This document shows positions 1 through 59,513 of a stretch of DNA of 64,000 bases, piece by piece. How positions within the stretch are numbered: position 1 is the first letter of the stretch; each line of letters begins with the position of its first letter. Position numbers and translations under genes: made by a program. The stretch comes from Schmidtea polychroa. Taxonomy: Eukaryota. The stretch spans positions 25,484,001-25,548,000 of the forward strand of contig CM097885.1 of assembly GCA_044892525.1 (NCBI GenBank), in the 5' to 3' direction. Below the pieces are notes generated by a model that saw nothing but the letters and a program-made list of their open reading frames with translations, was not told the DNA's origin and made no database searches.

Positions 1-1269
1 GTGTGCATGAGTTTTTGAATGATTTTCCGATTGCTCCGGAAAAGATGTGCCCGCCAGATTCGAAAGTTGGGAAGCTGATGCTCACGCATTGGCCGAAGAA
101 GAACTATGTTCTTCATTGGCGACTTCTCAAATTGTATATAGAATTGGGGGCTATAATTAAAACTGTACATAGAGCAATTTAATTTAAGCATGTACCCAAT
201 TTTTAAAGATTATATAGAGACCAATACTATTTTGCGCTCAAATTCTACATGCGAGCTGCACAGAGATTTATATAAACTATTTAATGATAGTCTGTATGGG
301 AAATCCGTGGAAAACCTTAAAAAACGGATGAATTTGAGGCTATGCAATTCAGCTGAAAAGATGATTGTATGTGCTTCAAAGCCGACTTTCAAGAAAGCAA
401 TCAAAATTGATGATGACTTGATTGCTGCACATCTAAATAAGGATTCTATGTGTTTAGACAGGCCTAGCTACATTGGCCAATCTGTGCTAGACCTGTCTAA
501 ACTGAGGATGTACCAGTTACAGTATATAGAATTGGCAAAATATCGTCTAGAGTTTAACTGTGATATAAATATCGATTCCGGCGAAACAGACTCCTTTCTC
601 TTTGAGATCAATCACTGTAAGCTTGACACTCTTTTGCCGGCAATGATTCGTGATAATCTTTTAGATACTAGCAATTATGATCCTGCTCATCCTTTGCATT
701 AAAAGAGCTTGGATTCTGTGATAGGGAAATTTAAGGACGAAAGTAAAGGGCTTGGTTATAAAGAGTGGGTTTTCTTGCGCTCTAAGTGTTATAATTTGTT
801 AGGAGATAAGGCAACACTTAGGGCTAAGGGAGTTCAGCTTGGTAATACTGAGATAAGGCACCAGTCTTATTTAGACTGCTACAACAACAGCGTAGTATAT
901 ACAGTGCTGCAAACGAGAATAGGTACAAGAAATCACCAGCTCTTTACTTTTAAGAATAGCAAAATAGCCTTGTCGAACAACGATGACAAGAGACTATGGG
1001 TGGGGCCTAATTCCAGTCTGGCATATGGGCATTATTTAGGATTTGACGAAACTGATGATGGTCAGATATTTTCTGAAGTAGGACAACTTTTTGGTTGCTT
1101 GAGTCCTGACTTTGATGAGGAATCAGATCCGGATAATGTTGGTCAGATATTCGAAGAGATTGGCCCACTTTTTGGTGGCTTGAGCCCTGATTTTGATGAA
1201 GAATCAGACGATCAAATTTACGTTCCGGAAATCGGAATCGATATTGACGATGTGATTTTATCTGATTAA
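1..1269 (+). pseudogene. Protein-primed type B DNA polymerase (pPolB) of Polinton/Maverick type, C-terminal part, disrupted
   Basis: From position 3 reads VHEFLNDFPIAPEK..KLMLTHWPKKNYVLHWRLLKLYIELG, then a stop at 180-182 and a +1 frameshift near 199. Continues YKLFNDSLYGKSVEN (PolB KxxxNSxYGK), SGETDS (decayed DTDS), a stop at 700-702, then GKFKDE, LRSKCY, AKGV and DDKR. Runs off the window start. Confidence 0.88.
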
Positions 1270-1560
1270 TCTGTTATTTAATATATTTTTTCAAAAAATA
1301 ATCTTTATATTGTTTTATATTGTTTTATTTAAAACTGGTTATAGTTTTCAAGGTTCTTACAGCAGTTAAATGCCTGTATAAATGTATAAAAATTTGATTA
1401 TTTCACACAAGTGTTAACTTTTGTAAGAATTTTTATAATAATATATTTTTATTGTGTAATAGTGTTGCAGTGGGTACGCAACATTAATTATTTTTTATAG
1501 TACTTTTTATTGTTGATATTTTATGGTTTAAAAACTCTAAAGGAAATTTGACACCGAAAC

Positions 1561-1578
1561 AATAATAATATTAATAAC

Positions 1579-1645
<67 letters not shown>
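1561..1645. repeat. (AAT)n microsatellite
   Basis: Direct reading; the other pPolB copy has a similar tract downstream (49838-49898). Confidence 0.95.
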
Positions 1646-1900: not shown

Positions 1901-4139
1901 ATAAATAGTGTGCTGGAGGTGACACATCCTATTACTTATTTTGTTTATTCAATTGCCAAAATAATTGTGATTACGTAATATAAATCATCGTAAGATGTCA
2001 AAAAATTCATAATTAATTCTAAGATTTTTTTAATAAGTCAAAACATTTTAACATTAAAAAATCAAATAATCTGAAAAATCTGAGCGGAAATCTCAATTTT
2101 GACTTTCTGATTGGTTTACAACCGAGTCACCTCCAAAATGGCGATAATATGATAAGGTTTTATTTGGTACCACCAAATTTCTATTATTTTCCCCGTTATT
2201 TAATGTTGTTTGATTATTTCTAACAATAAGTAACTGATAATTTTTACTTGTTATCCTAGTACAGTAAAACTCCGATTGGTTTTGTGACAATTCAGGTACA
2301 ACTGACTTTATACTAATACCTTTATATATACCCTTCTACCTTCATGTTTTTTTTATTGACTGAAAGACTACATCCTTTAACTTTAAGAAACATTGATTTC
2401 TGGTATAAAATCCCTTTATAATAGACTTTGGAATTGACAAATCAAAGTTTCTTGAATACACTGAATGGTTTGAATCATAAATGACAGTGATCAATGGATT
2501 TTATGTGTAAAAGTTAATGAAGCTTTTAATTCATAATTTCCAAAAAGGAAGATTCAATGAACCAAACAATAATATTAATTTTGCCGCTAAATTTGTTACG
2601 GTATTTTAAAACACTTCGTATTGCTGCTGATGAAACCTCAGTTTTAATAGATCTAGTACTGATTGACCAATCCAATTGAGTCTATCCAAACACACAGATA
2701 GTTTATTTAAGAATGTAATTAGATAATTGTGAGTTTTAAAGTTTTCTAAACGGTGGTTTCAAATTATAATTAAATAGTCTAGAAGCTTTATTACATAGCC
2801 TCAATTTCAAAATATTACGGTCCTAATACAGAGGCAATTACTTAATAATTGAAAGTATTTCCCCCAAAGTATAACCTGATACGTCCGGAAGTCGAGTGTA
2901 GATATCAGTGTAATCTTTCAAAAATAGAACAATGAAAGAAATAGGATAGCGATAAAAAAAGATGGACATTATAAGTTAATGCCATGGGAGCTCGCTAACT
3001 CATAGTTATTTAGAAACGTAATTTAAACCACCTTAAAGAAACATGAAAGAATTGTCATCAGCAAAACTAAAGGTCTTATAAAACTATTTCATTTTCCAAA
3101 TGAAAATTTTCAACATTCTCAGAGACTTGCACTAGTGCAACGGAAATACTCATAAATTCATGTTTTCATATTTATAACTATCTTCCTATGAAAATTAGAA
3201 AAAGTCACGATCATCAAAATTGAGTGTCTCAAAAATCTCAAAGAATCTTCTCCTAGAAAATATTTTTCTCCGTGAAAAATTTAAAATTATTTTTATCGCC
3301 TTTTTGAAGAGACACGAAAAATTTGACTTCAGCAAAAGTGTACATGTCGACAATCTCTAAATTTTTGCGACAAAAATATTTACAAAAACTTTGACACTCG
3401 CACCATAATGAAATGAATTTTAACCCCAAAAATCTTCATTTTTAGCACATTTTTGCACTTTTAAATAAATATTAACATTTTCTTAAGGTCAAAGGAATTC
3501 CTGCCACTAAAAGTGCTATTGGCTATAGTCAGAATTGGCACTGCATTTAAAATCAATCATACAAATTCAAATATTTTTGACCTGAAGATTTTATAACTCA
3601 CATTATAAGCTTTTGTGAGGGGTTTAATAACTTAAAATAAGTTAGAAAGCTTAATCCTCCTACTAATATATAATAACTATATTTTCATTAGTTACAGCAT
3701 GATATTTGTTGACAAATGTAAGTTCTTTACCTATTCTAACCCCATAGAAATTGTACATTTCCATCTCTTGCAGTAATTGTATTAGTATTGTATTAATTAA
3801 AAACCTGACAATGAATCTGTAAAGATATCGATGTTTTTGTGATAAATCAAGTTTTTAATAAATATAATGTCAATTGAAAAGAAATCAGTAGAGAAAATTG
3901 AAAAAAGTTCTGATAATTGTATTAGTCATTATAATGTCATGAGTGAAGTTGTTTATCGTGGTTTTTTTACAAAGATTGAAAAACATACAACATTTTATAC
4001 AACATTAATTTATTATAAATTATCTCTAAAATCTTCCTAATTCCGCTGGTAAGTGGATCTTTTCATATAATTGTTTTGTTTTCTTTAGATTATATTCTTC
4101 CAGGATACCTTAATAATTATAGATTCATTAATAATTATG

Positions 4140-7679: not shown

Positions 7680-7839
7680 TCATCGACCTTGATTTGACTT
7701 CCATAAAGACTTTGAAAAATTTCGTTATGAAACATCGAAGATCGTTGAAAATCATAAAACTTGGTTACCTACATAAAAATACTAGGAATTTTAGGGGAAA
7801 CCCTCAGCAATGATCCGGTGGTGACCAATATCATCTACT
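7680..7839 (-). mobile_element. Isolated Polinton-family terminus (...GGTGACCAATATCATCTACT)
   Basis: Resembles the right end of the 48700-57110 element (...GGTGACCATACCATCTACT) and has a GACCTTGA motif upstream. No partner end with a matching TSD was found. Confidence 0.5.
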
Positions 7840-15591: not shown

Positions 15592-15810
15592 ATAAGGAAT
15601 CCAAACATTCTTAAGGCTCAATTTCTTCTCTTAAAAATCTGGAGAATGTGAAACCCTATTTTGTGAATAGATTGATATTTCAATACTTCTTTTCAAATCA
15701 TACACGGAATGTCAGAGGTTGTATATATATATATATATATATATAGTATTTATTAAAAACTTGACTATGAATCAGTAAAGATATCGATGTTCTTTTTATA
15801 TTCACGAATT

Positions 15811-15924
<114 letters not shown>

Positions 15925-15929
15925 GATAG

Positions 15930-16891
15930 GTTTAATTGTTAATGACCAATGGGAAATGACGCACAAGGAAATCAGTACTAACCAGCCAGATCGTTCTCTT
16001 ATTTCCTTTTATAAATACATGGAAAATAAAATTGTTAAAACGCCTGAAGACCGACCAAAATTAAGAGAAAAGTTAGGAAAATTTACTCATGAAAATGGAA
16101 TAGCGTTTCAAGACATATATTTTGAGCATTTGGAAAAACTTGTGTGGAACTATGAAAACCAACCAGATCTTACAGTTAAAGGAAATAATGACAAACTCTA
16201 TCATTATATTTTGCCTAATTTTTTTCAAACAATTAGCTTTTTATATAAAAACAAAAGAGATTTTGCCATTATCATTCGAACTTTTGGTTTAGACATTCCT
16301 CCGATACTTAGGGCTATTAAAGCATTCATCAATGGTGACCATCCGATGTTTCCTGAAAATATGGACATTAATCTTTGTGACTGGCAAAATGAATTGGTTA
16401 TGGACACAAATAATAAAGAATATGTTTACAACTTTAAGAGTTGTAATGACCAGGAAATCGAAACAACTACCGACGAAGAGGAAATTGTTAAACACTGGAA
16501 CTCTATAAACGGAATAGCCGCAGTAAAGGACGACTTTAAATATTGGTCAGACAACAATTTTCATTACACAGCCTCGAAGCCATTGTGGATCAACCATAAA
16601 TTGGAAGCATCAGGCAAAAATTGTCATCACATATTTTTTGATGACTGCATTCGACCAAGGGACACCGACAGCATTGTGCATTTACGTTACCTGAAACCAA
16701 ACAGAGCAGATCTTACGATTTCTTCGAATGGAATTCCAAACAGCAGTTCAATTCTAGATCAGCAACAAACAGAAAAGTATCTCAACATAAATTTGGTACA
16801 GTCGGATTTGCTTGACTGCATTCGTAATAATAATTATTTCATTGACAAAATCAAGAACTGCGAAAAGAATTTTTCTATGATCAAGTTTTGA
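15930..16891 (+). CDS. Exon 2 of the uncharacterised HAD-fold-like protein
   Basis: Acceptor GATAG| at 15928-15929; G|GT TTA ATT GTT restores frame. Motifs IIIRTFGLD and HIFFDDCI (HAD motif II/IV-like); stop TGA at 16891; AATAAA near 16993. Confidence 0.88.
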
Positions 16892-17239: not shown

Positions 17240-17450
17240 AGTAGATGGATAGAGGCCCACTAACTCAGATACCCTCCTGGGTGTAGAAATTTTTTTTTAA
17301 ATTATGTAGGCCAACTGAAAAAACAGGAATTTTTTTGAAAAAATATGGAGGTCAACTCAAAGACAAAAGAATTTATTTAAATTTTTTGTAGGTAAACTCA
17401 TACTTAAAAAAAAATTTTTTAAATTAAAGTCATGCTGGAAGATGACTAAA
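17240..17450 (+). mobile_element. Isolated Polinton-family left terminus, same subtype as 51161
   Basis: AGTAGATGGATAGAGGCCCACTAACTCAGATACCC versus AGTAGATGGTTAGGAGCCCGCTAACTCACATACCC at 51161. Confidence 0.65.
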
Positions 17451-19513: not shown

Positions 19514-19917
19514 TGTTAGAAGAAGACATAGTTTCACAGAAATCTTTATTCACTTCAAAAATCTAAACGGAACACACAATCGTTATACTATTTATAGTAC
19601 ATTGAATTGCGTAATCTACAAAAGGGAGAATTATTAGTTTAAGTCAGTGGTACGCAAACCTTTTACCTCCCGGCACAAAATAGAAAAAAAAGTCAAGACA
19701 TAAATAGAAAGAATGTATTTTAAATTCTTTTACGGCACACTAATATGCCGCGGCACATAGTTTGCGTACCACTGGTTTAAGTGATACTGTTGACACAGAA
19801 GACAAACATACTTACTTAATTTAGTTAATCAAGCATTCCCGCATCATTCAATAGATATCAAGGTCTAGTGACCTGGTTATGTAAGTAATTCGTTGGAAAT
19901 TATTATATCATCTTACA
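19514..19917 (-). repeat. 3' LTR of Gypsy 1 (contains a MITE and the TATA box)
   Basis: Matches 25619-25872 (254 bp) after removing the 130-bp MITE, its 8-bp TSD and a 12-bp TATA-containing segment. Confidence 0.95.
19645..19774. mobile_element. 130-bp hAT (Buster-type) MITE
   Basis: TIR CAGTGGTACGCAAAC / GTTTGCGTACCACTG; perfect 8-bp TSD GTTTAAGT (nnnTAnnn); absent from the sister LTR. Confidence 0.95.
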
Positions 19918-21820
19918 TCCCCCTCCATTTAAAACTTTTGATCCATTCTACATTTCGAATTATTTCTTTGCCTTGCTTATTCTTTAGAACATAGCTTCTG
20001 TCATGTCGTTTTCCAGTTATTTCATAAGGCCCTTCATAACGTTCATCCATCTTTCTAGTATTTTCTTTTTAACCAATACTTGGTCTCCAACTTCAAAATT
20101 CCTATAATTTTGTGTAATTAAATTCTTTTCTATGTTTTGTTTATGTTTAATTCCCTCCACGATCTCCCTTCTTCGATTATTAGCATCATTATTTTGTATA
20201 TCCAAATTCTCTTTTTCCATCCATTGTCTACAAATATTCCGCCCAAATATTATTTCAGAGGGCGAAAATCCGGTTGTCTGCTGTATCGTCGCATTTAACA
20301 TAAATTCCACATCTGGCAATATTTCTGCCCAATCTTTATGCCGTTTGTCTTTTAACGTAATTGCAATTGCATCCCTTATAGTTCTAAATTGCCTCTCAAC
20401 TAAATCGTTTGTACTATGATGATATGGGCTTGAATATATTATTGTAATATGATGCGTTTTCAACACTTCTAAAAGGAGTTGAGATTCAAATGTTTTTCCT
20501 CTATAGGAGTGAATGATTTTAGGGGCACCAAATTTTGTTTTGCACCAAACTGTTTGGCACTTACTACATGAAGTACAGTCTTTTCTTGATAGGGCATCTG
20601 CGTTAGCATGGAATTCTCCTTTTCTGTATTCTAATTTGATATCTAGCCCACTTAAATAGTTAATCCATGTTTGGAATTGTGCTGTAATTGGCTTTTTTGT
20701 ATTTATCATAAAGGTTATAGCTTTATTATCGGTTCTTAAAGTAAATCTTTTTCCATATAGATAGTGTTTGAAATGCTGAGTAAAATGATAGATTGCAAGC
20801 AATTCCTTTCGCGTAATGCAGTAACCGATTTCGTGCTTATTCATTGTCTTTGATCCATATGCAATAACTTGTTCTTGTCCATTACTACTCAACTGCGAAA
20901 GCACTCCCCCAATCGTATCGAAACTAGCATCTGTATCTAAAATAAAGGTTTTTCGTAAATCCGGAAATCCTAGTACTGGGGTAGACGTTAACGCTTTCCT
21001 TAGAGTGTTGAAATTTGTTTCACATTCTTCAGTCCATATAAGTTTATCTTTGTTAGACCCACATAACCTTTCTAATGGTCTTGCATACTTGGCGTAATCT
21101 TTAACAAATTTTCGATAATAATTTGTTAAGCCTAGAAAGTTTCTTAAACGTTTAATACATTTTGGTTTTTCGTATTCTTGCATTGCTTTTATCTTTTCAT
21201 AATCTGTCTTAATACCATTTTTATTTATAATGTGTCCCAAAAATTTTATTTCTAGTTTGTAAAAACAACATTTTCAACTATTTTCAAACCAGCTTCTTGA
21301 ATCTTTCGAAAGACTCTTTCTAGTCTTTTTTATGTTCGATTTCATTGTCTGCAAATATAAGGATATCGTCTAAATAGACAATTGCTTCTCTCCAATTAAG
21401 ATCACCCAAAATTTGAGTCATTAATTTTTGAAAAGTTGCTGGGGCAGCTGAAATTCCAAAAGGCATTCGGTTAAAACAATATTGACCATCTTTTGTTGAA
21501 AATGCAGTCTTTATTTTTGATTCCTCTTCTAATTCCACTTGATAATAAGCATTATCAAGATCGATAGTGCTAAATATCTGTGCTCTATTTAGGATATCCA
21601 TCATCTCTTCAATATTTGGTATTGGAAATCGAGGTCTCTCCGTAATTGCATTTAGTGCCCGAAAATCCAAACATATTCTAATATCTGATTTATTCTTTTT
21701 TAACACACATACCAATGGGCTATTCCACACCGAGTCACATTTTTTTATAATTCCTGCTTCTTCCATGTCTTTTAGCATGTCTTGTATTTTGTGAGCAATA
21801 TGAATCGGCTGACGTCTAGG

Positions 21821-24618
21821 CAGTGGCGTAGCCAGAAATTTCAGAGGGGAGGGGTGCAAAATATTTTTTTTATTAAAAAAGTCCTAGAAATTCGTAATAA
21901 GTTTTGCCCTCAAAACCCCAGAGCTATTTCGAATGAATTTGATAAGTATATTTAAACATGGTAATAACATTTATTCTTGATCAAAGGAATTCACACGTCA
22001 AGTCGTCGTTTTCCTTTGCGGAACTCGCATATAAATTCATCAAAATTAACTTCCGTGTCACGATGAATGCTCAGAAACATTAGTCCGTTGAGTCTTTCCT
22101 CTCCTGTTGTATTTCTGTCGTCCGTTTTAAGTTGCTTCATTTTGCTGAAAGAGCGTTCGACGTCAGCGGTTGTTATGTGAATCACATTATAGATTTTCAG
22201 CAATCGGAACACGTTTGGGAACATTTCTTGAGGGCAAGCTTTTAAATGTTCCATTGAAGTCCGTGGTTTTACTGTTGCATTTCCCAGTCTTTTCTGCCAC
22301 ATCTCAACTTCTCCGAAAAACATCTGCACTGATCCGTTCAAATCTTCCACGTAGAAATGGTAAAGTTGCATAAGACTGTTCTGAACTTCTCTGCTCAACA
22401 GCCACTCTGGGTTGAACATTATATTTTTGAAATTTGCAAGCACTGCGTTTTCTCGAAATTTTTCTTTGAGCTCTCGACATACCGAATTCAACAGCGGGAT
22501 GAACAGACAACTATAATAAAACTCTACAGGCTGCTGATTTATTCCATCTAATCTTGGCCTTCCTTTATTTTTCAGCAATGAAATTTCAATTTCAAAGCAA
22601 GATGCTACGTCAGATGTTTCTTTGAATAAGGTTTGAAAATGGTCTTTGCTGTTCTCAGTAACCGTCTCAAGCTTCTCGATGAGATCATTGGTCGATGCTA
22701 TGGCAGTGCTATAATCTATTGAAGGTGATTGCAGAAGCCGACTTAACGGCAGGATGAAGTTGAACACGAATTTTAATGTGACAAGAGTAATAATGAAGTC
22801 GAAAGTCGACACTGTGTTAAGAAAACCTTGAGCTTTCACATTATCTTCGTTGTTACTCCATTCCGAAATTACATTCAACACGTCAATTGCTGGCTCGAAA
22901 AGTTCGAAGAATGTGTTGACTGCTTCGTGTCGTTCAATCCAGCGCGTTTCGCAAGTATTTTTTAGCTTTCTCTTAGCAGTTTCTGGCATTGTTTTCTCGA
23001 TTGATTTGCCAAATTCAACTTGTTTTTTCGGTGAGTTTAAGAAGTTGTAGATGCTTTTAATTGTGCCAAGACACAGGGTTATCTGCTTTACTTTGCAGCT
23101 TTCTCCAATGACCAAGTTTAATCGATGACTGAAACAATGTACGTAAGTAACCAGAGGAAAATTTTCCCGGACCATTGCCGAAACGCCTGATTTCCTTCCA
23201 CTCATCACTCTTGCTCCGTCTAAGCCAATTCCTCGACACTTTTCCATTCGTAACTTCATCGTGTTTGCCATGCTTAACAATGAGTCAGTAAGTCCTTTGT
23301 CAGTAACATCACACAAATCTGTGAGCATTGAAAATGTTTCAACAATATTATCGGCATCAATGTCGATAGAACGGAGTCCAATCGACATTTGTTATATTGC
23401 GGAAACATCCGATGACTCGTCGGCGAGAATAGAGAAAAATTCAGACTTTATAACTTTCTGAAGAAGCTTCGTCAAAGCAATCTCATTAATTATAACGATT
23501 ATTTCGTTCTGCATTGTGCTACTTAAGTATGTAGCATTTTTTGGCGAACTTTCTAATGCATTCCGAAAAAAATCGTCCCTCGAAGCAAGAAGTCTAATCA
23601 GATTTCTGAAGTTTCCGTCGTTGATGCCCTGTTGGTCGTTAAATATCCCGCCAGAATCTCTATGCGAGCGAGATAATTGATGGTGTCAAAAATTCCTTCC
23701 AAAAGAATCAAATTTTGCTTTCTTTCAACTTCTTTCTGCCTCGTCAACAGTCGTTCAATAGTTATTTCGGGGTTTTTGTTGACTACATAGAGAGTTTTTG
23801 CTGTTTCAATTGATCGTAAATGGTATGGCGCTTTTGCATGAGCAGTGAAAGTTTCACGGCACTTTTGGTAATTCTTGAAAGGTGTTCGGACAAGCAGTGA
23901 TCCAACTTGATCCCCGATCGCAAAGAAAAAGCAAAATTTGCAATAAAGTCCATCTCCTGCAACCGAGTAAATCAGCCAATCAAACTCACACAGCCAGTGA
24001 TAACTTAATTTCCGCTTTGTTGCCCCTTTCATTACTGCCGGGAAACTGAAGTGTGGTGGAGGATTTTTAAGCTTGCCCAAAGCATCAATTTTTTCAGAGT
24101 CATTTAATTGTGACCGCCGATATGACTCTATATCAGCTTCTTGGCTTTGAAAGGCACTACGTTCCTCCTTTTGTTCAGACCCCCCTCTTTTCGGCCACCG
24201 GTAACTCGAAGTTTTGATCGAAATCGTTTTCCTCCGTATCAACTTTTGATGTCTTAGCAAAAAATTTGGAAAGCGAACCCTGATGATGTTTTTTCATGGC
24301 TAAAATCGATTAAAAATTAAAATTCAATGCAAGTAAAGACATAAAATATAATTGCTATTTACTGCAACTTTACGAAATATGAAACTAATTTTATCGAGCA
24401 CTAACTATAATATTGTTTATTTACACTGTATCGTCCCTCGAAAAATTTATTGGGTCATTCCATTAGGACAATCTTCGATATTCAATTAATAGAAGCTTCT
24501 TGGCTCAATTAAATGTCTCATGAGACAATTATTCGGACAAAAAAAACCTAGCATTTCAATTATTTCGTCTGGAAGAAAGGGTGCAAATGCACCCTTGCAC
24601 CCCCTGGCTACGCGCCTG
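21821..24618 (-). mobile_element. hAT transposon B (P52rIPK/THAP12-like transposase) inserted in the Gypsy 1 pol
   Basis: TIRs CAGTGGCGTAGCCAG and CTGGCTACGCGCCTG; perfect 8-bp TSD CGTCTAGG at 21813-21820 and 24619-24626. Confidence 0.95.
21991..24297 (-). pseudogene. hAT-B transposase, frameshifted
   Basis: Likely ATG at 24297 (MKKHHQGSLSKFF). WLIYS..LYCKFC (TTF), ILADESSD, LDGA, HCFSHRLNL, CETRWIER and TTADVERSFSKMK; pieces in ORFs 23598-24260 and 21991-23388. Confidence 0.9.
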
Positions 24619-24899
24619 CGTCTAGGATTAATTGTCACTGGGATACCTCTAGTAACTATCTTATGTTTAATTAACTGTGTTTTTCCTACATCCCATTTAT
24701 TTTTCATGAATATATCCGAAAATTCTTTAAGTAATTTATTAGTCGTTGGGTCGATAATTCCTTTCAAATTGTTTTCCTCTAAATTCATTAATTGAATTTT
24801 TAATTTTACTTTAGTTACTGCCTATAATTTAATATCAAAACAATTCATCATTTCTACGCCTGCAATTACGCTCGGGTTAATCTTATTTGCCACAACATT

Positions 24900-25619
24900 G
24901 CTCTCCACACGCCCAACATCTCTGCAGTCTAAATCGCTTGGTCCCGTTCTTCCAGTCACTTTTATTTGGCATATTGAAATTCACGGCCTAATTGGTTCTA
25001 GAGTTAGAAAATATTGGCGTCTTATTCTGTTGGTACAACTGAGTTTTCTCGGACTTTTGACTGTCTCCGCATATGATTTATTTTCATGTAGAGATGCTAA
25101 TGATTGTTCACTTGAAAGCTCTTTTTGAATTTCTTCCATTCTTGATATCACTTCCTTGGCCTTATCTACTGATTTAACTTCTCTTAATTTCAATTCTTTT
25201 TTTGTTTCCATATCTTCCATTGCATTCTGCATTAAAAATAACATTAATGCCGGTTTTGTTAATTTGTGTCGAAGAACATTGTCGACGAGCTTTTCCACTT
25301 TATTGAAAAATTCGGTGCACGAGTCATTTCCTTTTCGATATCTTAAAGCTGCGTCTAGATCCATGGCTAGATTTTTCTTTGGCTCGAACGCTTTTCTTAA
25401 TCTTTCTTCATAGCCTGAATAATCGCTCTGTACTTCTTCATATTTCTGGATCAACTCTACCGACAGAAAGGCCTTGGTAAAAATTTCTTGAGTTTCTTGC
25501 GGTTGTTGAGTGACTTCGAAAAATCTCTTCAATTCCAAAATAAAAATTTTTAAATCACCATTTGGCAGCAATTGATTAGGTGGCTTGATATAGTTCTGGA
25601 GTCCTGGCGTGGTCGCCAT
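24900..25619 (-). pseudogene. Gypsy 1 gag (starts MATTPG at the LTR/PBS junction), truncated in the first zinc knuckle
   Basis: Aligns with the Gypsy 2 gag (FILELKRFF, EERLRKAF, FFNKVEKLVD); CWACGE is followed by a deletion. Confidence 0.85.
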
Positions 25620-25872
25620 GTTAGAAGAAGACATAGTTTTACAGAAATCTTTATTCACTTCAAAAATCTAAACGGAACACACAATCGTTGTACATTGAAT
25701 TGCGTAATCTACAAAAGGGAGAATTATTAGTTTAAGTGATAGTGTTGACACAGAAGACAAACATACTTACTTAATTTAATTATACAAGCATTCCCGCATC
25801 ATTCAATAGATATCAAGGTCTAGTGACCTGGTTATGTAAGTAATTCGTTGGAAATTATTATATCATCTTACA
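25619..25872 (-). repeat. 5' LTR of Gypsy 1 (254 bp, TATA deleted)
   Basis: TG...CA ends, near-identical to the 3' LTR, adjacent to the PBS. Confidence 0.95.
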
Positions 25873-47200: not shown

Positions 47201-48960
47201 ATTTCGTCAAAATGAGAAAATAAATATATATCTTAATAGTTGATGCCAGTATTAAAAAGCTGAACGACATAATATATTCATGAAGTTGTTGCGATCGACC
47301 ATATCAAGAATTTTGCCTTGCCATTGTATTGGTGCAGTTAACCCAGCCCAGGGAATAAATTTTTGCAACCCCACAACATAGACTTACTATATTCTAACAA
47401 AATTGTCATTCAAAGTTTAATGTTTTCATGGAAAATGACTATAATGCAGATAGTTATAATGTTTAACCTGAAGTAATAATTGGAATAACCTTTCGTCTTC
47501 AAGATCCATTTTACCTAAAGTTGAATATCTTTAGCTAATAAAATAACCATTATCTACCAATAGCCGACAGATCTAGATAAAGAATTAGAAAATTTAATGA
47601 ATAAACGTTTCGAACAATAATAAGTATTCGTAAATTAATACCATGAAAAAACAAATATGGCCCAGTGGCCAATGAGTAAGCCGGAGCGTACAATCGTGCT
47701 TGGTGAAGGCGAAGTGGGTACCCAAACGTATAGCGGAGTACTAGCAGCTCGTCAGTCACCAGCAAGATTGAATTTTCCGGCAGCTGGTCATAAAATATCT
47801 CTAAAACCAAAATCTAAAATGGGACACTTAAATAATAATAATAATAAACAGTGGTGATATTAAATTTACGTAATGGTGTAGTCAAACACTGGATAATTAT
47901 TTCCAAATTTAATCAGGAAGTTTGATTGAAATAAAATTCTTAAAAAATTTTACAATAATTAGATTTGACTTGCCTGGGTAGGAAGAATTTTTTTTATTAA
48001 AAGAAAAAATTGATTAAACTAAATTCAACTGAGCTTTCTACTATTCAAAATTTTATAGAACCTGATCTAACACTTCGAAGTTATGTCATAATCGGTCCGA
48101 AGTTCTATCCAGCATAGACGATTGGTGTGATGAATCTTGATGAATAAATATATGTGTCCTCGAGTTTTGCATTGACTTCTTTTTAACGAATAGGGTAAAT
48201 AACTTATAGGTCGAATAGAAGTGATTCTCACTAGCCTATACAAAGTAATACGAGGCATAAACCCAATAGATACAATAACTCGCCGATATCGTATATAGAA
48301 AAATAGTAGTTTGCCTATAAGGATTAGGTGCATCGGTATAACGATGTGCGTGCATTTGAAGGTGCATGTGTGTGGTTTGCCTGAGATAGAATGTGTAATT
48401 AATAAAGGCACTGATAGACCGAAAAATCGATAAGCAAACCGATGGGTAAGTGTGGACACACCCAGTTGCACACCGGTATTGTCGCCAGCTATATAAGACA
48501 TAGTAAGTAAATAATCATCGAATTATTTCTAGTCAACTAATGCCTAGCTATAAACAACACGACGATGATTTCATTGTTTGCTTCGTTTTCTTTGGCTTGA
48601 TGTCCTTGCTGTTATTCGAAAATTAATATTTCTGTTTCATTTTGATATAATCTAGAAATATAAATTAATTAAGATTAACTTAAATTTTTGGTGGATTTTA
48701 GTAGATGGATTGGTCACCGCGAGAACAAAGACATTTTCACCCCCGGCCGGAAAATTTTTTTTCAAGGTCAAATTGAAAACAAAGACATATGACTCATCAA
48801 GGTCATTGAAACAAAGACCATGACTCGTCAAGGTCATTGAAACAAAGATCATGACTCATCCGATGACTCGCCAAGGTCATTGAAACCAAGACCATGACTC
48901 ATCCAAGGTCATTCTCAATGTCGTATGACTCATCAAGGTCATATTATTATTTTTAAAAAT

Positions 48961-49680
48961 ATTATTATTTCTAATGTCTTTGTTCTCGCGGTGACCTACT
49001 ATTTGGCCTGCCAAAAGTTATCGTTCCCATCAACTTATTTCATCGGTCGATAGCTTATTTTAAAGCTTGGTGCAAGACCTTTCGAATGAGCTATTGCTGT
49101 CATCACCATCTTCAATATTGACAAAGTTATTAACATTTTCCCAAGAGCATTTCCAAAGTCATTTGACAATTTTATTATTATTTTTAAAAATATTATTTTT
49201 TCAAAGTCTTTTTTCAAGGTCATATTTTAAAATTAAACTTTACAGAGTTTCCGCCAACGAAAATCAGTAAACGATAGCTCATTTTAAAGCCCAAATCAAG
49301 ACCTTTCATATGAGCTATATATCTTATTATTAACATTATTATTTCAAAAGTCTGTTCTTGCGGTGACCTACTATTTGGCCTGCCAAAAGTTATCGTTCCC
49401 ATCAACGTATTTCATCGCTCGATAGCTTACTTTAAAGCTTGGTGCAAGACCTTTCGAATGAGCTATTGTTGTCATCATCTTTAATATTGGCAAAGTTATT
49501 ACCATTTTCAAGGTCATTTGTTTTTTCTCAAGGTCATTTGTTTTCTCAAGGTCATATTTTAAAATTAAAATTTACAGAGCTTCCGCCAACGAAAATTAGT
49601 AAACGATAGCTCATTTTAAAGCCCAATTCAAGACCTTTCGTATGAGCCATATATCTTGTTATTAACATTATTATTTCTAA
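48961..49680. repeat. Tandem duplication of a ~350-375 bp TIR module
   Basis: GTGACCTACTATTTGGCCTGCCAAAAGTTATCG...GCCCAA.TCAAGACCTTTC occurs at about 48991 and 49363, and inverted at about 51370-51645. Confidence 0.9.
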
Positions 49681-49837
49681 AGATATTATTATTATTATTA
49701 TTAATAAAAAATCCTATCAACCGATAAATAATGTTGCGTGCCCACTGCAACACTATTACACAATAAAAATATAAAATTTCTAACAAAATTCTTTCAAAAG
49801 TTCTGTCATCAGGATCCACACGAATCTCCTCATTAAC

Positions 49838-49838
49838 A

Positions 49839-49898
<60 letters not shown>
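49838..49898. repeat. (TTA)n microsatellite inside the Polinton-like element
   Basis: Direct reading. Confidence 0.95.
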
Positions 49899-50156
49899 TT
49901 TCGTTGGAATCTTTTAATAAAATACTAACAACAGATAAATAATGTTGCATGCTCACTGCAACACTATTACACAATAAAAATATATTATTATAAAAATTCT
50001 TACAAAAGTTAACACTTGTGTGAAATAATCAAATTTTTATACATTTATACAAGCGTTTAACTGTTGTAAGAACCTTGAAAACTATCACCAGTTTTCAATA
50101 AAACGAAATAAAACAATATAAAGACTATTTTTTAAAAAAATATATTAAAACACAAA

Positions 50157-51160
50157 TTAATCTGATAAAATGACATCGTCAATATGGATGCCGATTTCGA
50201 ATATCTGGCCAGGATTATCAGGATCCGAGTGATCGTCAAAGTCTGGACTCAAGCCACCAAAAAGTGGTCCTACTTCAGAAAATATCTGACCATCATCAGT
50301 TTCGTCAAATCCTAAATAATGCCCATATGCCAGACTGGAATTAGGCCCCATCCATAGTCTCTTGTCATCGTTGTTCGACAAGGCTATTTTACTGTTCTTA
50401 AAAGTAAAGAGCTGGTGGTTACGCGTCCCTATTCTAGTTTGTGGCACCGTATATACTACGCTGTTGTTGTAGCAGTCTAAATAAGACTGGTGCCTTATCT
50501 CAGTATTACCAAGCTGAACTCCCTTAGCCCTAAGTGTTGCCTTATCTCCTAACAAACTATAACACTTAGGGCGCAAGAAAACCCACTCCTTATAACCAAG
50601 CCCTTTACTTTCGTCCTTAAATTTCCCTATCACAGAATCCAAACTCTTTGAATACAAAGGATGAGCAGGATCATAATTGCTGGTATCTAGAAGATTATCA
50701 CGAATCATTGCCGGCAAAAGAGTGTCAAGCTTACAGTGCTTTATCTCTAAGAAAAAAGAGTCGGTGTCGCCGGCAACGATATTTATATCACAGTTAAACT
50801 CTAAACGATATTTTGCCAATTCTATATACTGTAACTCGTACATCCTCAGTTTAGACACGTCTAGTACAGATTGGCCAATGTAGCTAGGCCTGTCTAAACT
50901 TATAGAATCCTTATTTAGATGTGCAGCAATCAAGTCATCATCAATTTTGATTGCTTTCTTGAAAGTCGGCTTTGAAGCATATACAATCATCTTTTCAGCT
51001 GAATTCCATAGCCTCAAATTCATCCGTTTTTAAGGTTTTCCACGGATTTCCCATACAGACTATCATTAAATAGTTTATATAAATCTCTGTGCAGCTCGCA
51101 TGTAGAATTTGAGCGCAAAATAGTATTGGTCTCTATATAATCTTTAAGAATGGGTACATG
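50157..51160 (-). pseudogene. pPolB C-terminal remnant (copy 2)
   Basis: Highly similar to 189-1269, with downstream similarity extending to about 49930 (equivalent to ~1490). AGDTDS motif intact; 1-nt deletion near 51030; cut abruptly at 51160. Confidence 0.9.
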
Positions 51161-52088
51161 AGTAGATGGTTAGGAGCCCGCTAACTCACATACCCCCTCC
51201 CCCGGTCTGAAAAATTTTATTTTTTAGAACGATGCCTCATATTTTTAGAATTAATAATAAAATCATATGATGGGATCACTAACTTGTTGCATTACCAAAA
51301 GTAGGTCTCCGCTAGAACAAAGACATTAAAAATAATGATGATAATAATAAGATATATAGATCATTCGAAAGGTCTTGAATTGGGCTTTAAAATGAGCTAT
51401 CGTTTACTAATTTTCGTTGGCGGAAACTCTGTAAATTTTAAAATATAACCTTGAAAAAATAATATTTTTAAAAATAATAATAAAATTGTCAAATGACTTT
51501 GAAAATGGTCTTGTCAATATTAAAGATGATGATGACAACAATAGCTCATTCGAAAGGTCTTGCACCAAGCCTCAAAATAAGCTATCGACCGATGAAATAA
51601 GTTGATGGGAACGATAACTTTTGGCAGGCCACATAGTAGGTCACCGCGAGAACAAAGACATTAGAAATAATAATATTTTTAAAAACAGTAATATGACCTT
51701 GATGAGTCATACGACCTTGAGCATGACCTTGGATGAGTCATACGACCTTGAGAATGACCTTGATGAGTCATGGTCTTTGTTTCAATGACCTTGGTGAGTC
51801 ATCGGACGAGTCATGGTTTTTGTTTCAATGACATTGATGAGTCATGTGAGGAAGATTTAATTATTAGCACAATATAATATTATAATAATAAATTACATCT
51901 GAATTATTACTATTAAGAAATTAACATATACATATATTAAAGTATTATATTCGTATTATATTATGGCGTACATAATTATTATTGTTATTTAGAAATGCTT
52001 AATCGTCAATTTAAGGATTTGTTTAGTCAAACCGATATTGTTATAATTTTTGAATATAATTTGAATTCGACTTCTAGTTTTATTTAAC

Positions 52089-53252
52089 ATGGCGACCCTG
52101 GCAATAGTGAATAAGATGATTCCGGATGTTTACGACGGAAGACACGAAATCGAAACTTTCATTGAAGAATGTAAGCGATATTTTCAGTTATGTGGGTTAG
52201 ATCAAGATAACCAAAATATGATGATAAAATGCCTTATTTCAAGAGATATTTTACCGATTTATGAAGCCGTCGATGTCAAATTTATTAATTTTGAAGATAG
52301 ACTCAGAGAAGCTTTCAAGAAGCCGTCAACACTGATAGGCGATTTTCTGAACTTATACAATTATGAGAAAGATAACGATGCAGCGCCAGTGTTTTTCGAA
52401 AAGATTGAGAAAATGGTCGACAAAGTATTGAAACACAAGTGGGATAAAAACGAATTAGTCGCTTATTTTTTGATACATTGTGTCAAAGACAAAGAAATCC
52501 AAAAAGAGATCAAGATGCGAGATGCTTTAAAAGTCGAAGAGATCAAGGACGTAATTCGTAAAGTTGATGCTATCAACATTGAAGTTTCTAGTATTGCAGT
52601 TATGCAAAGAAAAGAAACGTTCGCAAACGTAATAAAGAAACGACAAGGATTTGCCGATATACAAGATCGACAACGCAATTTTTCAAATGTTCAAGAAAGA
52701 CGAAATTTTGAACCAAGATTCAATTCTATTCCGCACGCTCAAAGCTTCGATTCTGGAAGGAATACTAATCAACAGTATTACCATAGAGACAACAGAGCAA
52801 GTGGAAGTCGCGTTGTTACATGTTGGAATTGTCAAGAACTAGGACATTCGAGTCGAGAATGCCCAAAAAAGAAGTGTTATGGATGTGGAAAAGAAGGACA
52901 CATGATTAGAGAATGTAAAAATAACAAGATAAATTCAGAATTGAGATGCAACGCTTGTAAGGAATCTGGCCATCACCGGGGAGAATGTCCATCGATTTCA
53001 TGCTCAGGATGTGGAAAACGTGGTCATTTGCGGTTTCAATGTTGGGCAACAGCAGACACACGATCATCAGGAAGAAACCAATCTAGAAATTACGAGGATA
53101 ACAGACGATATCAAGACAGATATGCCGATGGAAGAGTGGCAGCTATGGAAGACCGCGGAAACGAAGCGGAGGATTCTCAGTCTACCCGAAGTGATGGACA
53201 CCCAAATGGGAGGGCTCCATCATTAGGCGAGATGATAGGAGCCATGCATTAA
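52089..53252 (+). CDS. gag: Gag with four CCHC zinc knuckles (387 aa)
   Basis: CWNCQELGHSSREC, CYGCGKEGHMIREC, CNACKESGHHRGEC and CSGCGKRGHLRFQC. Confidence 0.93.
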   Translation: MATLAIVNKMIPDVYDGRHEIETFIEECKRYFQLCGLDQDNQNMMIKCLISRDILPIYEAVDVKFINFEDRLREAFKKPSTLIGDFLNLYNYEKDNDAAPVFFEKIEKMVDKVLKHKWDKNELVAYFLIHCVKDKEIQKEIKMRDALKVEEIKDVIRKVDAINIEVSSIAVMQRKETFANVIKKRQGFADIQDRQRNFSNVQERRNFEPRFNSIPHAQSFDSGRNTNQQYYHRDNRASGSRVVTCWNCQELGHSSRECPKKKCYGCGKEGHMIRECKNNKINSELRCNACKESGHHRGECPSISCSGCGKRGHLRFQCWATADTRSSGRNQSRNYEDNRRYQDRYADGRVAAMEDRGNEAEDSQSTRSDGHPNGRAPSLGEMIGAMH

Positions 53253-56200
53253 AAGGTAATAATGATGATTGTGTGCGCCAAGATAAGTATAGTATATTTT
53301 TTAATAATAATAGTAATAGTAATTTAGACAGTATGTATAATTTTAAAAGTAGTAATAATAATTTAGACAGTATATCTAAATCAAATTTAAAGGTAAAAAA
53401 TATTAGATTTAAATCAGATGTAATTTTAGAAGATAGTATTAAAAACGTGAAAAGTAAATTAAAAAAATATGATGTAATAAAGGAAGATAATCAGAGTAAC
53501 AGTAAGATTATATATGACGTAAGAGATAAAACTGATATTAATGATTGTAATTGGATGCGTGATAAAATTAATGTAATTGAAAATAAATGTGATCAGAATT
53601 GTAAGAAGATAATAAGTATTTGTGAGGCAAAATTAATAAATAGCAGTAAAAGGTTTGTTTATGACGAAACATTGGATAAACATATAAATAATATTTCTGT
53701 TTTAAATGACGATTTAGAAATTGTATATGATAAGATGGGTGGAAGACCAAGCGTAATAGTTGGGATTAATAGGATTTATTTCAAACATTGTCTATTGGAT
53801 ACGGGGGCTAGAATGAATGTAATAGATAGCTCGATCATCAAAGAAATAGGTGAGATAGATATTAAACCTCACAATGAAGGAATTTGGTGTGCAAATGGCA
53901 GTCCATTGGAAACATTTGGCAATGTTAAATTGAAGATTCAAATCGGTAACAAAGAAGAGAATGTGATTTTTGTTGTTGTTAAAAAGGTTTCACCGTCAAT
54001 TATTGGTGGGATAGATTTACTTCGTCAATTCAACATCAAGTTAATGAAAATAAACGATAGTATAACTGAAAATACGGAAATAGAAAATAATTTTAATGAA
54101 ATTTGTAATATTGAGGCAAGATTTAGCAACTCATATAATGATGAGAAAAGATTTAGTCGAGCAATAAAATTATTTGATTTAAAAAAAGGAGATAAAATGT
54201 ATCAGATAATTAATGAAAATAAAGAAGTTTTTATGGCTGATAAATGGGACATTGGAAAAACAGATTTATTATGGCACGAAATCAAAACTACTGAGGGCCC
54301 AATTTACATGAACCCTAGACGACAACCGGCTCATTTAGAAGAAAAGATTGAGGAGGCTATAAAAAATTTGGAAGAAAATGGTATTATTAGGAAATGTGAT
54401 TCGAGTTGGAATACTCCATTGGTATGTGTTTGGAAAAAAGAAAAGAATGACATCAGATTGTGTTTGGATTTTAGAAACCTAAATAAAATAACAGAAAGAC
54501 AAATATTTCCAATGCCTAATATTGAACAAATGTTAGATTCACTCAATGGATCCAAGTTTTTTAGTACTATAGATCTTGGAAGTGCATATTATCAAGTGGA
54601 GTTAACAAATAATTCACAAGAAAAAACCGCATTTTCAACAAGGAGCGGACAGTACTGTTTTAATAGAATGCCTTTTGGAATTGCTGCGGCACCGGCTACA
54701 TTTCAAAAACTAATGAATATGGTTTTAGGAAAACTTCTGTGGAATACAGCTATTGTATATTTGGATGACATATTAATATTTTCTACAAATAAAGAAGAGC
54801 ATTTTAAAAGAATAAATGAAGTATTAATGAAAATTAAGGAAGCGGGATTACGAGTAAATCCAGAAAAATGTATATTTTTAACAAATGAGACAAAATTTTT
54901 AGGCCATATAATTAATAATGAAGGTGTGAAAGTGGATGAAAATAAAATTGAAGCAATTAAAAATTTTGTAAGACCTCAATGTTTGAAACAACTAAGAAGT
55001 TTTTTGGGGTTGTGTAATTATTATAGAAAATTTATAAAAAATTATTCAATGTTTTCACGAATATTAGAGTCTATATGTGGTACGACTAATGAAAAACTTA
55101 TATGGTCAGAAAAATGTGAAGAAGCATTTGAAGAATTAAAAAATGCATTATCGAAAACACCAGTATTAATATACCCTAACTTTCAGAAAGAATTTATTTT
55201 GGACACTGATGCAAGTTTTGACACAATTGGTGCGGTGTTATCACAGTTAGACGAACAGGGACATGAGCGAGTAATTGCATATGGTTCGCATTCAATGAAT
55301 AAGCATGAAATAGGTTATTGTATAACAAGGAAGGAGTTATTGGCCATTTATTATTTTACTCAACATTTTAAACATTATTTGTATGGGAAAAAATTTAAAT
55401 TAAGAACGGACCATAAAGCAATAACATTCATGATGGCAACAAAAAAGCCAATCACGGCACAATTCCAAACTTGGATAAATTTTCTTAGCAGTTTGGATAT
55501 GGATATTTCATTTAGAAAAGGTATGGAACATACCAATGCAGATGCATTATCCCGAGATAAGTGTGGACGATGTACTCAATGTATGGAAGTTCATGAAAAT
55601 CCTAAAACAGAAAAAATGAAAACAAGACTTTTAACAATGACAGCTGTTAAGCAAGGTGTGATTTGGCAAAAGGGTAATGTTGAGATAGAAAATCAAAAAG
55701 AATTAATCATGAAAAATGTAAAAACTAAATTTAAGATTGATGATGATGTTATCATGACAAAAGAAAATAAAATTTGGATTCCTAAAAACAATCGCGAAAA
55801 ATTTATCAAAGAAATGCATAAAATCCTATGCCACGCAGGTTGCAAAAAAGTGATTGACTACATAAAAGTAAATTATGACATGGATGAATTACAAATGATA
55901 ACTACAGAAATTATTCAAAATTGTGAATTATGTCAAAAAAGAAAAACACTAACAACTAAAACAAAGGAAACTATACTAAAAACGGAAGTGTCGAAACCGT
56001 TTGAAACAATTGCTATAGATTTTTGTGGACCTTTGAAAACAAGTGTACATGGGAAAAAGTATATTTTAGGAATTATTGATATGTGCACTCGATATATTTC
56101 TCTTACAGCAGTTTCTAAGCAAGATGAGAAAACAACAGCGGACACAATAATGAAATTTTGGATTCTAAAATATGGTTCTCCTAAGATAATTCAAGTAGAT

Positions 56201-56800
56201 TGTGGGAAGACATTTGAATCAGGTGTGATGAAAGAATTAGCTAAAACCCATAACATAATGCTTCAATTTTCAAGTCCATACCATCATAGTGCAAATGGAT
56301 TAATAGAACGGCAATTTCGAACAATAAGAGATTTCATGAGTACCTCAATTAAAGATAGATTAAAAAGCAATTGGGTAGAGGTATTACCAGAAATTGAATT
56401 TGCTTTGAACGCAACCGTACAAAGTACATTAGGGAAAAGTCCAGCGGAAATAGTATTTGGGTTTCGAATAACAAGAGAATGGCAAAACAAAAAGGAAGTT
56501 ACTAATGACCGAATTAGAATCATTGAAGAGATACAAGAAAAGCAAAGAAATGTTAAGTACAGAAACGCAGATAGAATTAATAGAGAATTTAAAATAGATG
56601 ACAACGTTTTAGTAAAGATAGACACAAGAAAAAAAGAAGATGATAGATACAGAGGACCTTTTCGAGTGATAAAAAAACTACATGATAGAAGTTACGAACT
56701 TATGGATAAAGAAGGTAAAACAATGATTCGAAATGTAGAATGGCTAAAGCCTTTTAAACAGGGGGGATGTGAGGAAGATTTAATTATTAACACAATATAA
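53195..56800 (+). CDS. pol: Pol polyprotein (PR-RT-RNase H-IN) in the -1 frame
   Basis: LLDTGA protease, YLDD RT, ILDTDAS RNase H, H..H..CELC zinc finger, D-D-E (AIDF, QVDCG, LIERQF) and GPF motif. Uninterrupted; the stop lies inside the 3' LTR. Confidence 0.95.
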   Translation, partial: WTPKWEGSIIRRDDRSHALKGNNDDCVRQDKYSIFFNNNSNSNLDSMYNFKSSNNNLDSISKSNLKVKNIRFKSDVILEDSIKNVKSKLKKYDVIKEDNQSNSKIIYDVRDKTDINDCNWMRDKINVIENKCDQNCKKIISICEAKLINSSKRFVYDETLDKHINNISVLNDDLEIVYDKMGGRPSVIVGINRIYFKHCLLDTGARMNVIDSSIIKEIGEIDIKPHNEGIWCANGSPLETFGNVKLKIQIGNKEENVIFVVVKKVSPSIIGGIDLLRQFNIKLMKINDSITENTEIENNFNEICNIEARFSNSYNDEKRFSRAIKLFDLKKGDKMYQIINENKEVFMADKWDIGKTDLLWHEIKTTEGPIYMNPRRQPAHLEEKIEEAIKNLEENGIIRKCDSSWNTPLVCVWKKEKNDIRLCLDFRNLNKITERQIFPMPNIEQMLDSLNGSKFFSTIDLGSAYYQVELTNNSQEKTAFSTRSGQYCFNRMPFGIAAAPATFQKLMNMVLGKLLWNTAIVYLDDILIFSTNKEEHFKRINEVLMKIKEAGLRVNPEKCIFLTNETKFLGHIINNEGVKVDENKIEAIKNFVRPQCLKQLRSFLGLCNYYRKFIKNYSMFSRILESICGTTNEKLIWSEKCEEAFEELKNALSKTPVLIYPNFQKEFILDTDASFDTIGAVLSQLDEQGHERVIAYGSHSMNKHEIGYCITRKELLAIYYFTQHFKHYLYGKKFKLRTDHKAITFMMATKKPITAQFQTWINFLSSLDMDISFRKGMEHTNADALSRDKCGRCTQCMEVHENPKTEKMKTRLLTMTAVKQGVIWQKGNVEIENQKELIMKNVKTKFKIDDDVIMTKENKIWIPKNNREKFIKEMHKILCHAGCKKVIDYIKVNYDMDELQMITTEIIQNCELCQKRKTLTTKTKETILKTEVSKPFETIAIDFCGPLKTSVHGKKYILGIIDMCTRYISLTAVSKQDEKTTADTIMKFWILKYGSPKIIQVDCGKTFESGVMKELAKTHNIMLQFSSPYHHSANGLIERQFRTIRDFMSTSIKDRLKSNWVEVLPEIEFALNATVQSTLGKSPAEIVFGFRITREWQNKKEVTNDRIRIIEEIQEKQRNVKYRNADRINREFKIDDNVLVKIDTRKKEDDRYRGPFRVIKKLHDRSYELMDKEGKTMIRNVEWLKPFKQGGCEEDLIINTI
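53201..53243 (+). promoter_or_regulatory. Programmed -1 ribosomal frameshift signal (gag to pol)
   Basis: C CCA AAT slippery heptamer in the gag frame, 5-nt spacer, and hairpin GGCTCC-ATCAT/ATGAT-A-GGAGCC. The pol (-1) frame opens at 53195. Confidence 0.75.
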
Positions 56801-59513
56801 TATTATAATAATAAATTACATCTGAATTATTACTATTAAGAAATTAACATATACATATATTAAAGTATTATATTCGTATTATATTATGGCGTACATAATT
56901 ATTATTGTTATTTAGAAATGCTTAATCGTCAATTTAAGGATTTGTTTAGTCAAACCGATATTGTTATAATTTTTGAATATAATTTGAATTCGACTTCTAG
57001 TTTTATTTAACAAGTCATGTCTTTGTTTAATATTTTGACCTTAAAAAAATTTTCCGGTCGGGGAGTGGGGTAAAAATGTCTTTGTTCTCGCGGTGACCAT
57101 ACCATCTACTGATTTTGATTCTTTTGTTGAAATATTAAATTTAATTTTTCTCGATAAAATTATTGTTTTTTCTAATAAATTTCATTTAACTTGCTATAAG
57201 AGTAAATATAGAAGTGCAAATTTTTCATGCAAAGATGAAAAAAAATTCTTATTAAATATCATGAAAACATTTTTTAATTGCACATTTACGCAAATTTATA
57301 ACTTTGGAAACCGAATGTTGTTCAAATCTTTAATGTTCTGTTATCGCAAATAACTAAGCTTTATCATTGCTATCAAATAAACTTTAAATAGTTACCTGTT
57401 TAAATTCGCGCCTCATACAAATTGTCGCGTAATTTCCAAACTGAAGACGAATATCAATATTAGAAAATTTCTACGGAAGATTTTCTCATTAATTTAGTGT
57501 GATATGCAAAACGAATTTGTGAGTTTCTTGTCGTATCCTCGTTTTTAATTAAATGCTAAATGCTAGTAAATTTCTAAAAATGCCAGTAATAATTACTGAA
57601 CAATATCAAAAAAATTGTAACAAATGGTTATCTATCCATGAATAATTACTGGATAAATATTGGTTGATTTGTATGGTGGTTATTGTAATATGCACGATCA
57701 ACATCATTACGAATGGTATAGCTTTTGTTACTTTCTATTAAGATACGATGTTAACGTTCCTAATGAACTCTTCATCTTATCATCAGCGTCCTAAGGTACA
57801 AATCATGCAGCCTTGTTACATTGTTAACAAAAAATGATAATATTCCACATCGTATCTTTTGGTTCTACATGCCTTTTGATTGGAATTCATGGATAACAGC
57901 TTTCAAACACCCACCAAAATCCTTTTATCCTCGTGATCTTGCCTCAAATTATTAGTAGCACTTGAGATTAGCCTATTTTGGCAATATTCGTGACCCTGCC
58001 ATCCCTAATTACGAAAAGCTAGGATCCTTGATCTGTCAAACATCCATGACTTGCATTGAAGCCCAACGACAACTACTGACTTCTAAAGCAATCCTTAGAT
58101 TGGTCAGCCAAATCAGACTCGGGGCTCGTTAAATCTCGAGTTAGAATACTTCGTTATTTCAATTTCCATTCAATATTTAATTTTTAGTACCATCATTATT
58201 ATCAAATACAAACGATAAACAGAGAAGTTAAAAATGTATTAATGAAATTAGTTATTTGAAACTTGACTCAAAATATGGCAGAGATTATAAATATGAGACA
58301 AAAGAGTTAAAATTTGTGTACAACTTTTGCAAATCTCATAAACATGGTTTTAGGCATTAGACGAAAATTGGTTGATTCATATACAATTTTAGTTTCAAGT
58401 TCATCGAAGTTCTTTATGGAATTTTTGTATTAACTCTTGTTCAATAATTCATATAGATAAAAAGTAGGTATTAATAGTTTTGAATTCTTATGTTCAAATT
58501 TCCCATTTTCTAAACCATCATTTTATTATTGTAGTCAAAAAGCACTAATTAGGCAAACTGTGACTACCTAAAAATTTGGCATTTAATGATTTCATTTTAA
58601 GAAATTAGGCAAAACTGATATCAAATTTATTTAATTCAAATATTCAATGTCTAACACACTTTCAAAATTTCTATAAAAACAATTATACACTTGATGAAGT
58701 AAAACAAACAAAATAATAATTCCAGAAATTTGATTAATATGACATCAAGATTATCACAATACACAAAATAATTGCCTTGCCTTATATTCAGTTGTGCCAA
58801 TCACAATAATATTACGGGATCAATGTATTGTTAGTTCGTAACACAAAGATGAAATACTACTCACTCTCATAAAATATATCACTTAAAACATTTACACACC
58901 TAACTAAATTAGTTTTGTTGAAGTCTCTAAAATTAGTTGAGATTCTCAACATGCACCGGTTATATAAATATATTAAGAACAAAGACGTTAATGTTTTTCA
59001 AAAATTTAGTAATTATAAAATTTACCTACAAAAATATTCACTAATGCGATTCACAATGGCTTTCGAAGTCATAATTTCTGTTGGATCTTTTTTTCAAAAA
59101 GATGCAGGTTATATCATGTGTTTGTTATTTCTATATTGTGTTGCTTATATTTTGTAGCAGGGGCGTATATTCAGGGTGTGCTAGGTGTGCGGCGCACACC
59201 CGCAAAACCAACTAAAATATAAATTTAGAAATTTAGAAAATTTAGGGCATAAAGCGACCATATTGTTTTGCATACACTATATGCCATACAGTAGTATTTG
59301 TTGCGGATATTAAGCAGTTTTCTACCCAATCAACCGAGATGCGACCATTAGGTTGTTCAATGATGACATTATCTCCTGGTATGGACACGGAAAAACTGTT
59401 ATTATTCAGAAATAAAATGATTATGTGTTATTATGAATTTTATTATTATCAATTTTAATTGTTATTATCAATTTTAATAAGCCTATCACTTTCTTTTAAC
59501 ATTAATTCATTTT

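Follow-up and report, generated by a model that had tools for sequence, protein, structure and literature searches.

A likely deleted and nested Polinton remnant in Schmidtea polychroa, with a terminus of a second end type at the break in its pPolB gene

Repbase includes non-autonomous Polinton entries. Polintons (Mavericks), whose general definition can be found in PMC6431247 and for which a racket-like replication model has been summarised (PMC4196379), are, when intact in vertebrates, 12.7-24.6 kb long, carry TIRs of 46-1,447 bp, have (AGT)2 or (AG)3 ends and are flanked by 6-bp TSDs, and 96% of the vertebrate Maverick loci are degraded (PMC8097293). Genomes of C. elegans contain remnants made up of a pPolB end and a TIR, without an integrase, at 10 loci, with several copies at one locus, rearranged by what is inferred to have been recombination between Polintons or TIRs (10.1101/2024.01.15.575659), and in Pieris, polintons that lack polB and carry cargo remain mobile (10.1101/2025.02.07.637071). 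The copies described for Mayetiola are short fragments (PMC8504770), and no non-autonomous copies are reported for Anolis (PMC3014272). Deleted Polinton remnants being common and mobile non-autonomous polintons having already been reported, the likely reading of the locus presented here is an ordinary one, namely that of a deleted, nested Polinton remnant, which is of an ordinary kind even if its anatomy is unusual.

The element lies in a 64,000-nt stretch of the Schmidtea polychroa genome (assembly GCA_044892525.1, contig CM097885.1, positions 25,484,001 to 25,548,000, forward strand), referred to below as the window, the first letter of which is position 1 of all the coordinates given. Its outer termini are two copies of AGTAGATGG, found at 48700 (+) and, as the reverse complement, at 57110 (-), and the target duplication, arms and spacer are arranged as follows.

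48694-48699, + strand: left TSD copy, GATTTT (sequence inspection)
48700-49690, + strand: left arm, end type A, consisting of the terminus, a 31/43-nt tandem zone (48762-48904) and two modules of ~370-400 nt
48950-49345 and 49324-49690, + strand: the two left-arm modules, at the start of each of which the terminal motif recurs as an inverted relic (self-comparison)
49691-50156, no strand: AT-rich spacer, GC 0.21, with (ATT)20 at 49839-49898
51346-51844, - strand: inner portion of the right arm, with a single type-A module (arm alignment)
57018-57110, - strand: outer portion of the right arm, bearing the type-A terminus (arm alignment)
57111-57116, + strand: right TSD copy, GATTTT (sequence inspection)

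The arms can be aligned over ~600-650 nt (48700-49345 against 57110-57018 plus 51844-51345), the left one holding two modules and the right one a single module plus the start of a diverged one, and they differ by 20 substitutions in 446 columns distant from gaps (4.5%, i.e., 2.2% per arm) as well as by indels of 2-20 nt, several of which are 6-20 nt long. All six TSD positions match, for which the chance probability is ~0.0009 at the composition of the flanks; the flanks are single-copy in the 64-kb window, which contains no empty-site paralogue. The element's own sequence amounts to 3,238 nt within 8.4 kb, and a Gypsy element takes up 5,168 nt of the remainder. Matching termini, TIRs of about 600 bp, a GATTTT TSD and some 3.2 kb of own sequence, all of which the original prediction had listed, are indeed present, and its assignment of the element to the Polintons/Mavericks is borne out by the long arms, the 6-bp TSD and the pPolB remnant adjoining an arm, with no support found within the window for a non-Polinton transposase behind these TIRs. 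The outer end begins with AGTAGA, close to the (AGT)2 motif given in PMC8097293 but not a perfect copy of it, and an IMG/VR element with a 1314-aa pPolB and an rve integrase (L001, 72-15426), of which one end was recovered, has AGTAGATGG immediately following an (AAT)n run; L001 contains this sequence a second time (12707) and L028 once, each time within an ORF, and these occurrences were attributed to chance. As an observation in its own right, inverted and shortened relics of the element's own terminal motif open the arm modules (48965-49003, 49342-49380, 51297-51335 and 51632-51670), so that inverted end motifs bound the initial ~300 nt of the arm.

The right arm is split by the Gypsy element, the position of which inside this arm is not mentioned in the original prediction, and which shows the TG..CA LTRs, the short TSD, the gag and the PR-RT-RH-INT order of pol domains that characterise Gypsy/Ty3 elements.

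51845-57012, + strand: Gypsy LTR retrotransposon (LTRs, TSD, gag and pol domain matches)
51845-52089 and 56768-57012, + strand: its LTRs, 245 nt each, 1 mismatch (LTR comparison)
51840-51844 and 57013-57017, + strand: its 5-bp TSD, AGTCA (sequence inspection)
52065-53252, + strand: gag (ORF)
53195-56800, + strand: pol, in the order PR-RT-RH-INT (domain matches)

Open gag and pol frames, taken together with LTRs that differ at one position in 245 nt, make this a recent insertion. Elsewhere in the window there is a decayed LTR element (19775-25872, - strand; 143-nt direct repeats that are 97% identical, with RT and RNase H matches) that has a hAT-type transposase ORF inside it (21991-23391), and an ORF of ~330 aa (15779-16891) with no credible Pfam match stands behind a (TTA)n run.

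Between the spacer and the break lies the only coding part that can be assigned to the Polinton itself, for which a second copy of the same family at the start of the window serves as a comparator.

50157-51160, - strand: pPolB 3' remnant, about the last 300 conserved residues plus the tail (homologue comparison)
1-1269 (similar stretch extending to 1620), + strand: second pPolB copy, belonging to the same family (94.6% identity) and uninterrupted at the junction position

The frame of the remnant is broken near 51030, leaving a 290-aa open stretch (50157-51029), and the remnant corresponds to residues ~943-1231 of a 1242-aa PF03175 protein, at 52-66% identity. A total of 89 homologues were found at E<=0.001 among 1768 candidates (longer proteins), the best being 68% identical and many having PF03175; searched on its own, the fragment gave no match in Pfam, PHROGs or PDB, and its exact protein is absent from the protein collection searched. 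When 301 ORFs from 83 related loci were compared with the element, matches inside it fell only on pPolB and Gypsy, which is a weak test for decayed genes, as these loci are distant, though little unexplained sequence remains. Neither the ORF list nor the ORFs of the related loci revealed an integrase, ATPase, protease or capsid gene of the element's own, and the earlier claim that the 3' part of pPolB is the sole coding remnant holds in that no other ORF of the element was found; the same can be said of its non-autonomy, considering that there is no element gene besides this remnant and that 3,238 nt of own sequence compare with 12-25 kb for autonomous elements. The spacer is, from 49839 onward, common to the pPolB copy at the start of the window (1-1620), and this copy has a stop at 700, its similarity ending in an (AAT)n run with no arm after it. 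An older pPolB relic (window ~2100-3780, - strand) can also be recognised by long pieces that are 26-33% identical to full-length homologues.

At the other edge of the pPolB remnant, a third AGTAGATGG, facing inward, starts at 51161, which is exactly the first base past the break in pPolB, and the expected number of such 9-mers in 3.2 kb is 0.018.

51155-51160, + strand: six pPolB bases that adjoin the inner terminus and match the uninterrupted copy (window 189-194) at every position
51161-51256, + strand: third terminus, type B, with no left-arm counterpart beyond the shared end motif
51257-51345, - strand: start of a diverged module, 77-78% identical to the type-A modules
17240-17310, + strand: comparator, a solo end resembling type B in a different flank, with no partner end in the window

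The joint (51160/51161) shows 0 nt of microhomology when set against the uninterrupted pPolB copy, and the six bases before it may be the single surviving copy of the target site of an inner element. Over 35 nt, 85.7% identity (E 5e-6; the similarity score of 63 was reached by 0/200 shuffles) links the type-B end at 51161 to the solo end at 17240; with type A, the end at 51161 has the general end motif in common (a score likewise reached in 0/200 shuffles), and no partner end for 51161 or 17240 was found in the window. Beyond this terminus, the innermost piece of the right arm has 19 substitutions in 87 columns (22%) as compared to 4.5% further out (P 9e-9), 5 of the 10 changes private to the right arm fall in 51329-51365, and the arm is of the outer type from ~51375, which would be consistent with 51257-51345 being a remnant of the inner element and with a switch to type A somewhere near 51330-51375. 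A pPolB cut flush by a type-B terminus, followed by an inner right arm that is 22% diverged, indicates that two end families are combined in the element, making it a chimera, and the view of it as a simple deletion derivative of one parent, as the original prediction had it, is not supported for the same two reasons, the coincidence of the break with the terminus of a second family having been missed. At least two Polinton end types occur within these 64 kb, and another solo end, at 7839 (-), resembles type A (score reached by 1/200 shuffles) and is likewise without a partner in the window; a module match in reverse orientation within it beat 200/200 shuffles but was rejected, as 15/432 ordinary window tiles reached it too.

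In a region this rich in repeats, one might suspect that the assembly is chimeric here or that ends of unrelated copies came to be paired by chance, yet the low chance probability of the TSD match, a joint that is base-precise at a terminus, and a nested Gypsy element with clean LTRs and TSD make such an artefact very improbable.

The explanation that arguably accommodates most of the above, with a probability that we would put at roughly one half, is that of a chimeric non-autonomous Polinton remnant formed in place, by a type-B insertion into pPolB and a subsequent deletion that joined it to the right arm. For everything that preceded the Gypsy insertion, we infer the following order of events: a full-length type-A Polinton would have integrated here, giving rise to the GATTTT duplication; a type-B-ended element, possibly itself short, would then have integrated into its pPolB, as suggested by the joint being flush and free of microhomology; and a crossover or annealing between the related subterminal modules of this insert and of the type-A right arm, as suggested by identity falling from ~95% to 78%, would have removed the rest of pPolB and all of the other genes. 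The Gypsy element inserted into the right arm last. That a joint lying flush with a terminus should be an integrase product follows from the established integration of Polintons with 6-bp TSDs, and the further solo ends and pPolB relics in the window point to there having been an opportunity for nesting. Intact ends plus a TSD are no proof that a short form moved, and the GATTTT duplication does not establish integration of the short form as a unit, because a deletion in place keeps it equally well and a TSD inherited through such a deletion carries no information on the size of the element at integration. Helper-driven movement of the 3.2-kb form would not be needed if the remnant was formed in place.

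The original prediction had instead envisaged a MITE-like or defective-interfering 3.2-kb family that amplifies and owes its spread to helper pPolB and integrase acting in trans, with which both ends and the TSD being intact would agree; however, no second 51160/51161 junction is present in the 64-kb window and the chimeric joint can be accounted for without any amplification, leaving this reading improbable. The exact end patterns gave 0 matches in viral contigs and metagenome contigs, and the presence, in 8 sequencing runs from 3 studies, of a fraction of 0.09-0.61 of the 323 words sampled from 48400-51840 carries no evidential weight.

What speaks against formation in place is, to begin with, the disparity between the arms and pPolB. 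The two pPolB copies, between which pN/pS is 0.23, have 18 amino-acid differences in 241 codons, only 5 of which are found in this element alone, the remaining 13 (one of them a stop) being private to the other copy, a split that is stable across homologue sets of 5 to 60. These 5 private changes in 575 non-synonymous sites correspond to a decay of 0.9% versus 2.2% for each arm, a mismatch with a Poisson P of 0.012 and a Fisher P of 0.06, the 95% ranges calculated by hand (0.3-2.0% for pPolB and 1.4-3.5% for the arms) overlapping. The several 6-20-nt indels that separate the arms add to this, differences of such a kind being easier to understand if the two arms already stemmed from separate copies by the time of the last integration, and no independent support was found for type-B ends carrying the module, as the matches in the 7839 and 17240 ends were reached by 15/432 and 41/432 ordinary window tiles, respectively. 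Were the age gap real, the arms might have already been different at integration, and a composite of ends from two copies would be favoured on what is a borderline difference; the gap can be regarded as one hint that the element may have moved as a unit.

Such a composite could have formed elsewhere, from a short element (777 nt without Gypsy) that sat inside pPolB, its left end being of type B and its right arm type-A-like, if the left end of the host and the right end of the insert were then used together, once or a few times, by helper enzymes that copied the whole and integrated it here, with a new GATTTT duplication. A single matching TSD enclosing arms that are 4.5% apart and have many indels between them, along with a pPolB that looks younger, would fit this, and so would the mobility of polB-lacking polintons in Pieris (10.1101/2025.02.07.637071). 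Galileo copies that combine TIRs from two subfamilies as a result of ectopic recombination had non-matching flanks (PMC3573991), from which it would follow that mismatched arms inside a matching TSD suggest a real integration. On the other hand, the age gap is borderline and its ranges overlap, the tandem units that make up the arms are prone to slippage (conversion among TIRs has been discussed for Galileo, PMC3573991), and more steps are required; we consider the composite move less probable than formation in place.

The more general proposition behind it, that a Polinton integrase can pair ends of different copies or families, a Polinton-ended miniature of ~0.8 kb first entering pPolB and the resulting composite mini-element then moving, is more speculative still and should be seen as rather unlikely. 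If true, a self-synthesising, virus-like transposon would be capable of composite transposition, and the minimal cis requirement common to the end families would be the terminal 9 nt, a C-run and GAAAATTTT. Should the junction recur with different TSDs, or should the arms turn out to stem from different copies, the locus would become a natural record of the end sequences that a Polinton integrase accepts, and also of whether it joins ends of different families, a direct test of either not having been found in the portions of the literature covered.

Compared with known systems, the element is like Polintons/Mavericks as described in PMC8097293, PMC6431247 and PMC4196379 in its long TIRs, 6-bp TSD, 5'-AG end and PF03175-type pPolB beside one of the arms, and unlike them in having just 3.2 kb of own sequence without integrase, ATPase, protease or capsid genes, with the AGTAGA form of its end and the inner third terminus additionally setting it apart from the vertebrate Mavericks. 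With the C. elegans remnants (eri-6/7 and other loci, 10.1101/2024.01.15.575659) it shares a pPolB end with a TIR and a missing integrase, whereas here both ends and a TSD bound the remnant and the terminus of a second family lies at the break, for which no counterpart is known from that account; a Polinton cut by the terminus of a second family was not found among the titles and abstract beginnings surveyed in general, and the bioRxiv supplements may list short polinton derivatives. The deletion, two-TIR and chimeric copies of Galileo are similar in having long, internally repetitive TIRs of variable length and in being subfamily chimeras that arose by recombination or conversion, but Galileo is a cut-and-paste element of the P superfamily with 7-bp TSDs, and its two-subfamily chimeras are without matching TSDs (PMC3573991). 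The polintons of Pieris, lastly, are non-autonomous as well and have LINE or Gypsy sequences nested in them, as is the case with Gypsy here, yet they are related to more complete copies and have polymorphic insertions, whereas the present element, known from its sequence, keeps a pPolB fragment alone, and, unlike the Pieris cargo, its Gypsy arrived later than the divergence of the arms.
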